From positions 1-6,735 of the forward strand of contig JAHQXC010000069.1 of the NCBI GenBank assembly GCA_029856525.1: a stretch of 6,735 nt of DNA. The letters are read 5' to 3'. Of the stretch, positions 2,968 through 4,614 are shown piece by piece. The position numbers and the translations under genes are program-made. The stretch is from Candidatus Odinarchaeia archaeon. Its GTDB lineage: Archaea; Asgardarchaeota; Odinarchaeia; Odinarchaeales; Odinarchaeaceae. The stretch's first letter is position 1. The number at the start of each line of letters is the position of its first letter. Under the pieces are notes generated by a model. The model was not told where the DNA came from. It saw nothing but the letters and a program-made list of their open reading frames with translations, and ran no database searches.

Positions 2968-3033
2968 GCGACCGCCGGTCTTCACAAATAGATTCCCGCT
3001 TCCGCAACCGGTTTCGATATCCACGAGTGTAAC

Positions 3034-3144
3034 GTTAACTTACCTATGCATAAGTGAACCCATTCTATCGGATGGGGTTCCTGCTTCAATGATGAAGCTT
3101 ACCGGTATTTTCGACCGGTAGAGGCCCAGTCTCAGCCCTGCAGC
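3034..3144 (-). ncRNA. Candidate orphan TnpB-type omegaRNA (IS200/IS605 right-end-derived scaffold 3144-3054 plus ~20-nt putative guide 3053-3034)
   Basis: The minus strand reads GCTGCAGGGCTGAGACTGGGCCTC-TACCGGT(CGAAAAT)ACCGGTA-AGCTTCATCAT-TGAAGCAG-GAACCCCATCC(GATA)GAATGGGTTC-AC. The order CCTCTAC/hairpin/AAG...TGAAGCAGGAA/hairpin/TTCAC matches my recollection of archaeal IS605/IS1341-type tnpB 3' ends. It also encodes the relic peptides ETGPLPVENTGK and KQEP, typical of TnpB C-terminal tails. No alignment was run. Confidence 0.6.
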
Positions 3145-3168
3145 TTTATTCTTTTTGACGATGGAAAC

Positions 3169-3182
3169 TATAAATACTTTTC
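3169..3182 (-). promoter_or_regulatory. BRE/TATA promoter candidate for the omegaRNA-like RNA
   Basis: The minus strand reads GAAAAG-TATTTATA: a purine-rich BRE followed by TATA. Standard archaeal spacing puts the TSS near 3146-3143, at the start of the GC-rich scaffold. Confidence 0.55.
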
Positions 3183-3204
3183 AGCTTTCATCCTCAGCTG
3201 TCAT
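3181..3204 (-). repeat. Tandem 11-nt imperfect direct repeat ATGA(C/A)AGCTGA
   Basis: ATGACAGCTGA (3204-3194), GG spacer, ATGAAAGCTGA (3191-3181). It can also fold as a CAGCT/AGCTG hairpin. Confidence 0.7.
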
Positions 3205-3291
3205 AGCGGACTTCACGCCGATAAAGTTAAAAATGAATATAAAGTTTTTAGTCTTCAATCTCTTATTGGAATGAGACCTAGCTGTTTAATC

Positions 3292-4614
3292 TTAAAATTC
3301 AACCATAACCGGGCTGAATTTCACAGCTGTTTGGTTTATTGTACTCTGCTCTTCACGTCCGCCTACATCTACTATAGAGTTTAAAATATTTGTACATGAA
3401 GAGGAGAGCAGAGGCCCGTAGATAGGCTTCGATATTTCACCGTTTATTATTAAATAACCACATATAACCACAACTCCGAAGTCTCCTGTAACGCTATTAG
3501 AGGTGTGAGCGCCTGTGACTGTTTCAATATAATAACCTTTAGTTATATCATGAATTAGATTATTACTTGTAGTTGAAGGAATGTGAATTGTGTTTAACCC
3601 TATGCTTGGGGGGGTGTAGTAACTTCTATGAGCGTTACCTGTGCTCTCTAATCCAGCTCTACTACTCCACTCAATATCGTATACAGCCTGCTTTAAAACA
3701 CCGTGGTTAATTATTATATTTTTTCTCGTTGAAGTCCCTTCACCGTCAAATGGCCGGCCGCTTACAAAATTATTAGAATCACCCCAGTCAATTAAGAATA
3801 CTTTCTCAGACGCGATCTTGGATCCTATTTTATCGGAGAGGAAACTCCTCCCTCTCGCTATATTCTCACCTGTAATAGCCTGGCCGAAGGTGTGATAGAG
3901 TATTTCACCTAAAGCAGCCGGGCTTAAAATCAACTTATTATTTAGATTAATCTCTCTACTCGGCTTTAACGCTGATTTTAATTTATATGCGAATTCATCA
4001 GCGATTTCGTCTATTACTCTCCCCTCTGATAAGATTGAAAAATCTTCGACTTGGCATTCAAGAGATGGAGGGTTGTCAGATTTCCCGTAAACTATTTTTC
4101 TTAACATAGATTTTTTATAAGTAGATTCGAATCCTGTTGTATTATATAATCGGGTCTCTATTAGAAAACGCTCAACACCCCCGGATAAAATCGGGTTGAC
4201 ACCTAGTTTCTTCGATTTCTCTAGCGCTTGATTAAGTAAAGCTGTTGAATCCTCTAAAATTTTTGAGCAAGGTAATTCAGCTATCTTATCAGAGTAGAAT
4301 AAACCGCTATCTCTCACAGGCTTGTCTTGAAACTTAATAAACGGGTTCACCTCATTAATTTTAGCTAACCGAATAGCCTGTTTAAGCAGACGGTCTAAGT
4401 TTCTAGGCGCTAGGTTACAGGTGGAAGCGTAGCCTAATCTATTATTATAGAGAACTCTAACACCGACTCCAGCATCAGTCACATCTTCAAAAACATCTAT
4501 TTTATTATTTTCAAAACTTGAAGTTGTGTGAGAAATTTTAGAATAGTATATTTCACATTCAACTCCAAGTTTGGAAGCTTTAGCTAAAATTTTTTCGAAC
4601 AAATTAAATTCCAC
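3292..4614 (-). CDS. pmbA: TldE/PmbA family protein (non-catalytic partner subunit of the TldD/E metalloprotease)
   Basis: Has GVGVRVLYNNRLGYAS, LILSPAALGEIL, GRSFLSDKIGSKIASE, RPFDGEGT, STGNAHR and TGAHTSNSVTGDF. It lacks the HExxGH zinc motif (EILYHTFGQ instead). The GTG start overlaps the last codons of tldD by 11 bp. Confidence 0.9.
   Translation of the reverse strand: MEFNLFEKILAKASKLGVECEIYYSKISHTTSSFENNKIDVFEDVTDAGVGVRVLYNNRLGYASTCNLAPRNLDRLLKQAIRLAKINEVNPFIKFQDKPVRDSGLFYSDKIAELPCSKILEDSTALLNQALEKSKKLGVNPILSGGVERFLIETRLYNTTGFESTYKKSMLRKIVYGKSDNPPSLECQVEDFSILSEGRVIDEIADEFAYKLKSALKPSREINLNNKLILSPAALGEILYHTFGQAITGENIARGRSFLSDKIGSKIASEKVFLIDWGDSNNFVSGRPFDGEGTSTRKNIIINHGVLKQAVYDIEWSSRAGLESTGNAHRSYYTPPSIGLNTIHIPSTTSNNLIHDITKGYYIETVTGAHTSNSVTGDFGVVVICGYLIINGEISKPIYGPLLSSSCTNILNSIVDVGGREEQSTINQTAVKFSPVMVEF

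Follow-up and report, generated by a model that had tools for sequence, protein, structure and literature searches.

Positions 3054-3232 of the window (the whole stretch of 6,735 nucleotides analysed here, from a Candidatus Odinarchaeia archaeon) very probably hold, on the minus strand, one copy of a non-autonomous and protein-less derivative of an IS200/IS605-family, tnpB-carrying element, i.e., a PATE (palindrome-associated transposable element). Alignment with full-length elements shows a left end (LE) with its own predicted archaeal promoter joined to the element's final ~93 nt by what appears to be the loss of the whole tnpB body, and these ~93 nt are homologous, in the same comparison, to the omegaRNA scaffold that overlaps tnpB in full-length elements and have the same GTTCAC terminus. 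The parts of the window copy are as follows.

3226..3231, minus strand: TTTAAC motif that directly abuts the element on its 5' side; probable insertion target or transposon-adjacent motif (TAM)
3183..3225, minus strand: left end with a subterminal imperfect hairpin, delimited by the LE profile and the 16-copy alignment
3169..3182, minus strand: predicted BRE/TATA promoter, GAAAAG plus TATTTATA, read from the sequence
3054..3146, minus strand: omegaRNA-type scaffold of ~93 nt, from the predicted start at ~3146-3144 to the right-end terminus TTCAC
3131-3124 / 3098-3091, minus strand: family helix C, in the scaffold
3119-3114 / 3106-3101, minus strand: family helix B, in the scaffold
3076-3072 / 3063-3059, minus strand: terminal hairpin, in the scaffold
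3038..3053, minus strand: predicted 16-nt guide TTATGCATAGGTAAGT, the flank directly 3' of the right end (a length of 16 nt being assumed from published TnpB systems)

The window copy and its repeat family

Read on the minus strand of the window, GAAAAG (3182-3177) is followed by TATTTATA (3176-3169), and a GC-richer block starts ~25 nt downstream of the latter. This block contains a perfect stem, formed by TACCGGT (3120-3114) and ACCGGTA (3106-3100), then TGAAGCAGGAAC (3088-3077) and, right after it, a hairpin of CCCAU (3076-3072) and AUGGG (3063-3059), and it terminates in TTCAC (3058-3054). The GC content of the block amounts to 0.44-0.49, versus 0.31-0.39 in the adjacent stretches on both sides, and its 111-nt RNA folds at -36.2 kcal/mol, with z = -2.6 against shuffled sequences. 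One frame through the block reads ETGPLPVENTGKLHH and then a stop, and the only open reading frames across the 179-nt unit described below are artefacts of 35-56 aa, too short for a transposase or any other protein. Rfam was run over the entire window at E<=1 and gave no match in 3000-3300, and ARAGORN did not find a tRNA in the block region. Three sub-threshold Rfam miRNA/snoRNA-like matches elsewhere in the window were taken as chance. A hairpin at 4510-4576, at the junction of the two TldD/PmbA-like genes, with an Rfam miRNA-type score of 25.7 bits versus a gathering threshold of 48, was treated likewise.

An earlier note on this DNA had placed each of these motifs correctly on the minus strand, including an archaeal BRE/TATA ~25 nt upstream of the block. 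Its reading of the frame holds for ETGPLPVENTGKLHH and the ensuing stop, but the stop lies three residues later than claimed; moreover, the box that it had drawn, 3054-3182, lies inside a repeat unit but is too short, since the unit spans 3232-3054 and adds a left-end module upstream of the TATA box.

This unit became apparent in the genome to which the window belongs (1.32 Mb in 127 contigs, 93% complete, GC 38.5%), where a search with the block returned 20 matches, and a profile HMM together with a covariance model yielded 16 full or strong copies and ~6 weaker or partial ones. Alignment of the 16 full copies with their flanks defined a unit of ~179 nt, in which the left end with its imperfect hairpin, the BRE/TATA, a 25-nt spacer, and the structured block follow each other from 5' to 3'. 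The boundaries are sharp, with a start at TTTAAC/TTTATCGG and an end after GTAGTTCAC, the copies ending at GGGGTAGTTCAC with the GTTCAC terminus, and in the 16-copy alignment the flanking DNA on either side differs from copy to copy and shows no relationship. The DNA right after the end, where the earlier note had placed the guide, is thus variable. With ~20 genomic repeats and sharp, conserved boundaries, the block is far more than chance.

The flanks carry no target-site duplication and the unit has no terminal inverted repeats. Instead, a CCCC..GGGG hairpin is located ~16 nt inside the left end and another one 8 nt before the right end, both read from the alignments and both preceded by GGAAG(T/C). 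A terminal-inverted-repeat MITE was considered and rejected, since the two ends share T-AACT only and target duplication is lacking. All 21 copies examined are intergenic, and 20 of them have no overlapping ORF of at least 90 aa. Copies are 59-90% identical to each other (median 79%), which indicates an old family, and conservation is near-uniform along the element, with the exception of the LE hairpin. Guide cassettes outnumber the tnpB genes assembled in this genome by ~10:1.

The match of the LE profile in the window spans 3232-3168 (E 5.9e-19). The family consensus of the left end reads GGGAAGTC-CCCC..loop..GGGG-TGAAAG, of which the window copy holds a degenerate version (TCCGCTATGACAGCTGAGGA), and the LE hairpin region is the least conserved and an indel-rich part of the element, with a column identity of 0.65, whereas that of the BRE/TATA reaches 0.92. 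TTTAAC(T) is present 5' of the conserved left end in 15 of the 16 aligned copies, the DNA further upstream being unrelated, and TTTAAC also stands before the left end of L070, a tnpB element, while TTTAAAC precedes that of L064. The motif is likely, judging from its position in these alignments, the target or TAM after which the element inserted.

The profile HMM also finds solo units of ~45 nt in the same genome, consisting of TTTAAC and the LE hairpin only, with neither TATA box nor scaffold. Further deletion may have left them as relics, or they may represent a REP-like mini-form.

C3:4618-4660, C10:5042-5090, C84:613-654, C82:20388-20429, C85:9940-9979 and C18:1814-1883, own genome: solo left-end units

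Copies of the element were not found in three genomes of the same genus, and more distant genomes of the same phylum do carry them. At the syntenic site of the congeners, two convergent genes abut and the element is missing, so that the conservation at this site in relatives that the earlier note had wanted checked is absent from the three same-genus genomes. What the three congeners lack at the window site is ~320 nt, not a clean 179 nt, and an exact empty site was not recovered from them. Contigs of one DNA run break inside the repeat and exhibit no excision joint, a result that comes from contigs only and is not evidence on excision. No RNA run lists the locus, and this, in turn, is not evidence on expression. 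Around the PATE, positions 2968-3053 and 3233-3285 of the window comprise ~140 nt of unique intergenic DNA with no counterpart in the three congeners. Within it, the GC-rich segment 2983-3036 was considered as a second degenerate left end and discarded, as its match (E 0.96) is not significant.

Kinship with tnpB 3' ends and origin of the promoter

The transposon origin of the block is indicated, in the first place, by a locus designated L043/L054 (JAHPYV010000211.1), where a 377-aa ORF with OrfB_IS605, Cas12f1-like TNB, and HTH_OrfB_IS605 domains is preceded by a Y1-transposase-like tail, a remnant of tnpA. In an nhmmer search (E 2.8e-12), positions 97-180 of the repeat profile align with the last ~70 nt of this ORF and the 8 nt that follow it, and the match stops at GGGTAGTTCAC, after which unrelated DNA follows. 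Moreover, an exact-pattern scan of ~185,000 species genomes gave six loci, one of them linked to tnpB (in a Methanomethylicales MAG), another one to a tnpB pseudogene (in a Thermoproteota MAG), and the others devoid of ORFs.

These six loci and 12 copies of the own genome were combined in a structure alignment, from which three nested helices, A, B, and C, were derived, and which served as the basis of the covariance model R1. RNAalifold on a first, raw MAFFT alignment had given a poor consensus of 8 pairs and was replaced by the hand-derived nested structure and pair counting. In the 19 pairs of the three helices, 82.7% of the cells are paired, versus 23-53% with slid partners, and both sides have changed in a compensatory manner in 6 of the 19. 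Of 45 family members, 42 form the guide-proximal terminal hairpin before TAGTTCAC, and they do so through many different stem sequences. Support for the structure comes mainly from the comparison between lineages in these alignments; among the own copies, the level of pairing would also be expected under neutral decay, and nothing shows selection on the RNA within the genome.

R1 scores the window scaffold at 80.4 bits (E 3.2e-18). In this copy, 4 nt of the right end are missing, namely the GTAG that separates the terminal hairpin from TTCAC in the family, and the two strands of family helix A do not complement each other. In the same phylum, R1 matches 32 of 151 genomes. At 11 of the 29 R1 loci inspected, an ORF of 343-470 aa ends inside the match, and Pfam identified TnpB in all ten of these long ORFs that were tested. 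Most of the tnpB-linked R1 loci are outside the training set of the model, and loci not used in training were recovered with E values of 3.5e-16 (L064), 1.1e-15 (L066), and 7.1e-10 (L070). In addition, some PATE scaffolds contain remnants coding for a TnpB C-terminus, 62-86% identical to the tail of the L055 TnpB. The block is, by homology, an omegaRNA-type scaffold and right end. In this respect, the earlier note, which had proposed an orphan omegaRNA scaffold with no tnpB gene and covariance models as the way to examine it, is upheld both by the nhmmer match at E 2.8e-12 and by R1, whose matches end inside ORFs that Pfam confirms as tnpB (10 of 10 tested).

The TnpBs closest to the PATE scaffold, L054:3146-4276 and L055:4742-6334 (JACIVQ010000030.1), have no CxxC...CxxC zinc ribbon, which is present in other scaffold-linked TnpBs, and that of L055 continues into a long, unrelated C-terminal extension; both are probably degenerate copies. 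Another genome of the same phylum (G018, 2.2 Mb) contains 24 R1 matches, including the tnpB-linked L064, and these are an independent expansion of the same scaffold family.

As for the promoter, the earlier note had suggested that a dedicated one replaced the body of tnpB. However, a module of the same kind precedes an intact tnpB in L070, an element from the same order, where TTTAAC, an alignable GCGGGAAGTC-hairpin-GGGGATGA, a TATA box, and TTTCCAATC stand upstream of the start of the gene, which points to a native left-end promoter. A similar architecture of a hairpin followed by GGGGATGA can be recognized by eye upstream of tnpB in L064, L078, and L089. This likeness was read by eye, and the LE profile gave no score at E<=0.1 against the tnpB-linked loci L070, L064, L078, and L089. 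Since the LE and TATA module precedes an intact tnpB in L070, an internal deletion of tnpB would have fused promoter and scaffold, and the simplest history suggested by these comparisons is that the promoter is the element's own left-end promoter, set before the scaffold by that deletion.

The process of deletion can be seen directly in the same genome, in a second PATE family with units of ~280 nt (C125:1-278, C29:3820-4100, and C71:10583-10863). These units correspond to a resident element with a 426-aa tnpB (C93:25961-27305) minus ~1.07 kb (C93:26066-27132), and they are 88-96% identical to this parent. The second family is younger than that of the window. For the family of the window, a parent element in the own genome was considered and dropped, as both the repeat profile and R1 miss the right ends of the C93 element and of the other resident tnpB element, C44. 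Further right ends of the C93 element lie at the ends of contigs C77 and C78 and, therefore, it is probably a multi-copy element that was collapsed in the assembly.

Putative mechanism, partners and alternative readings

From published work on IS200/IS605 elements (PMC10055086, PMC8612924), we infer the steps through which such a PATE could operate, with promoter use, RNA ends, and guide length likewise having the status of predictions. Transcription would start near 3146 under the control of the LE TATA box and proceed through the scaffold into the flank, so that the product would be an omegaRNA with the 16-20 nt past 3054 as its guide. The two subterminal hairpins, which resemble each other, would be bound by a Y1 TnpA, with cuts made behind TTTAAC and behind GTTCAC. 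With a cognate TnpB in the same cell, the empty donor site (TTTAAC plus guide) would be cleaved under the guidance of the RNA once excision has taken place, and recombination after this cleavage would restore or re-copy the element. The PATE would, in this manner, parasitise both TnpA and TnpB in trans.

The own genome contains two types of tnpB and one fragment. The C93-type TnpB has an intact D-E-D triad and a zinc finger. The other type is found at C44:8180-9899, where the only Y1 tnpA of the assembly is followed by a 447-aa tnpB whose product has, as judged from alignment alone, a Gly (VVGNL) in the column of the RuvC-II Glu and may be of a rearranged-active-site type or inactive. The triad that the earlier note had wanted checked in TnpB homologues is, hence, intact in C93 but carries Gly in the Glu column in C44. 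The element to which the C44 Y1 TnpA belongs has different-looking ends, so that this TnpA is at most a candidate for mobilising the window's family. Both resident TnpBs are only ~25% identical to the TnpBs linked to the scaffold class, and R1 gave no match at E<=1 to the 3' ends of either gene. A tblastn search with 12 scaffold-linked TnpBs retrieved only the distant C93 and C44 genes and the small coding remnants inside PATEs. Neither a cognate TnpB nor a nuclease-dead partner for the scaffold class was found in the assembly, which is 93% complete and in 127 contigs, so that a true absence is not proven. Regarding the guides, the 16-mer of the window copy has no other match in the genome at <=2 mismatches, and none of the 18 guides (16 nt past the right end) has a second, TAM-flanked match in it at the same threshold. 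Because a partner was not found, the family is old, and the right end is damaged, the window copy is most likely a decaying relic, which, at most, still fires its promoter into the neighbouring DNA.

This outward transcription is at the core of an unlikely alternative, compatible with a PATE origin and not exclusive of it, according to which the unit, whatever its provenance, serves as a portable promoter or antisense generator that transcribes neighbouring DNA. In the window, the outcome would be an antisense transcript against the 3' end of a 90-aa zinc-ribbon gene (2695-2967), and elsewhere transcription would run into co-directional genes. The BRE/TATA does belong to the best conserved segments, as its column identity indicates, an oligo-T terminator between scaffold and flank was not found in the sequence of the window, and 12 of the 20 callable copies have a co-directional downstream gene, six of them within 27-78 nt. 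However, the resulting split of 12:8 reveals no bias in orientation, and the near-uniform conservation along the element leaves no special constraint on the promoter.

Slightly harder still to credit is the proposal that the cassettes are a live, dispersed guide library for a TnpB acting in trans, or that LE promoters have been co-opted to drive or antisense-regulate host genes. In the case of a library, the TnpB could be an unassembled cognate or the C93 nuclease, cross-recognising the shared GGAAGC-hairpin-TAG(C/T)TCAC module. If either held true, transposon-derived guide cassettes would constitute a host-level regulatory layer in an Asgard-type archaeon.

It is very improbable that the locus is a domesticated stand-alone guide RNA, kept by the host to guide a TnpB, or a nuclease-dead TldR-like derivative, to a host target. 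A predicted promoter and a scaffold are present without tnpB, and TnpB homologues are encoded, C93 with its intact D-E-D and zinc finger and C44 with Gly in the RuvC-II Glu column. However, the single stand-alone locus of the earlier note has turned out to be one of ~20 dispersed mobile-element copies of the same family, whose flanks all differ; for none of the guides was a further TAM-flanked site seen at <=2 mismatches; the cassette is absent from three same-genus genomes, the syntenic site included; and the window copy carries a deletion in its right end. Furthermore, the cognate TnpB-family partner that the earlier note had envisaged elsewhere was not found in the assembly, the resident TnpBs being only ~25% identical to the cognate clade and their right ends being missed by the scaffold model. 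The findings that the earlier note had itself named as marks against its proposal point to a transposon relic and not to a domesticated system. Finally, a structured small RNA of some other kind, or a GC-rich block that arose by chance, in either case with no link to transposons, would agree with the lack of Rfam and tRNA matches in the region, but is refuted by repeats with defined ends that are homologous to tnpB 3' ends in many genomes and can be dismissed.

Comparison with known systems

The PATE class was established in 2011 on elements of Haloquadratum walsbyi (Dyall-Smith et al. 2011, PMC3119063); PATEs arise by deletion of the core of IS605-type elements, and some of them keep C-terminal tnpB remnants (PMC3119063). 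The PATE-like elements of Geobacillus stearothermophilus "often encode omegaRNAs", and these depend on a TnpB provided in trans (Meers et al. 2023, PMC10055086). The window's family resembles these elements in that terminal inverted repeats and target duplication are absent, each end has a subterminal hairpin, insertion follows a short conserved oligonucleotide, the ends are in common with those of tnpB-carrying elements, and the origin lies in core deletion. It also keeps a tnpB C-terminal coding remnant and the omegaRNA region, and it is a heterogeneous, old family, comparable to the "heterogeneous PATEs". It differs from them in its host, an archaeon with a small genome from the Asgard phylum, in the lack of a detectable cognate tnpB in the assembly of the window, and in its layout, with the archaeal LE BRE/TATA ~25 nt before a minimal scaffold of ~93 nt, which results in a compact promoter-plus-guide cassette. 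The PATE class has been known since 2011 and its link with omegaRNA since 2023; what is new here is the host lineage, the compact layout of a promoter plus 93 nt, and the breadth of the family across the phylum. No new kind of RNA-guided system is revealed.

With regard to the TnpB-derived RNA-guided transcription factors termed TldR (Wiegand et al., PMC10705468), the common ground does not go beyond the broad notion of employing a TnpB-family guide RNA outside transposition. A TldR system consists of a nuclease-dead protein and a guide to a conserved host promoter, at a conserved locus, whereas none of these was encountered here: the element is multi-copy and absent from congeners, and its guides match their own flank only. 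Moreover, the C44 TnpB sits beside tnpA in its own element and has no link to the scaffold of the window's family.

Several aspects of this element can be useful beyond the present genome. For annotation, what looks like a GC-rich, promoter-bearing "small RNA gene" between the genes of an archaeon, in AT-rich DNA, can be an IS200/IS605 derivative devoid of genes, and R1, starting from one genome, recovers the family, with and without tnpB, across those 32 genomes of the phylum. For transposon biology, the locus provides a clean example from an archaeal MAG of how deletion of tnpB sets an element's own promoter directly before its guide scaffold, with a second family in the same genome caught beside its intact parent. 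For the building of tools, it offers a naturally minimal scaffold of ~93 nt and TTTAAC as the candidate TAM for a clade of archaeal TnpBs of ~400 aa.

RNAs at the 3' ends of archaeal tnpB genes (sotRNAs) were reported as early as 2015 (Gomes-Filho et al. 2015, PMC4615843), and the omegaRNA, or reRNA, of TnpB has been described for IS200/IS605 and IS1341-type elements (Karvelis et al. 2021, PMC8612924). As in these RNAs, the scaffold studied here derives from the right end and, in full-length relatives, overlaps the 3' coding region of tnpB; its end coincides exactly with the transposon boundary, where the flank then becomes the would-be guide, and it adopts a multi-helix fold with a guide-proximal hairpin. 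In contrast to these RNAs, there is no tnpB in cis, and the predicted transcript would come directly from the LE promoter instead of a tnpB mRNA or a start inside the gene. The scaffold of the window's family is also shorter than that of the relatives L055, L056, L058, and L059, which retain an extra 5' hairpin.

Longer ORF-less relatives occur in the genomes G058, G043, G051, and G034, with lengths of ~390 nt (L037, L038, and L046) or ~440 nt (L039, L040, and L047). Their left end and TATA box are ~80% identical to those of the window copy, and the TATA box is followed by a structured RNA region of 300-350 nt and then by a right end of the form hairpin-TAGTTCAC (or GATGTCAC). Between lineages of these longer relatives, the RNA body has diverged much more than the left end has.
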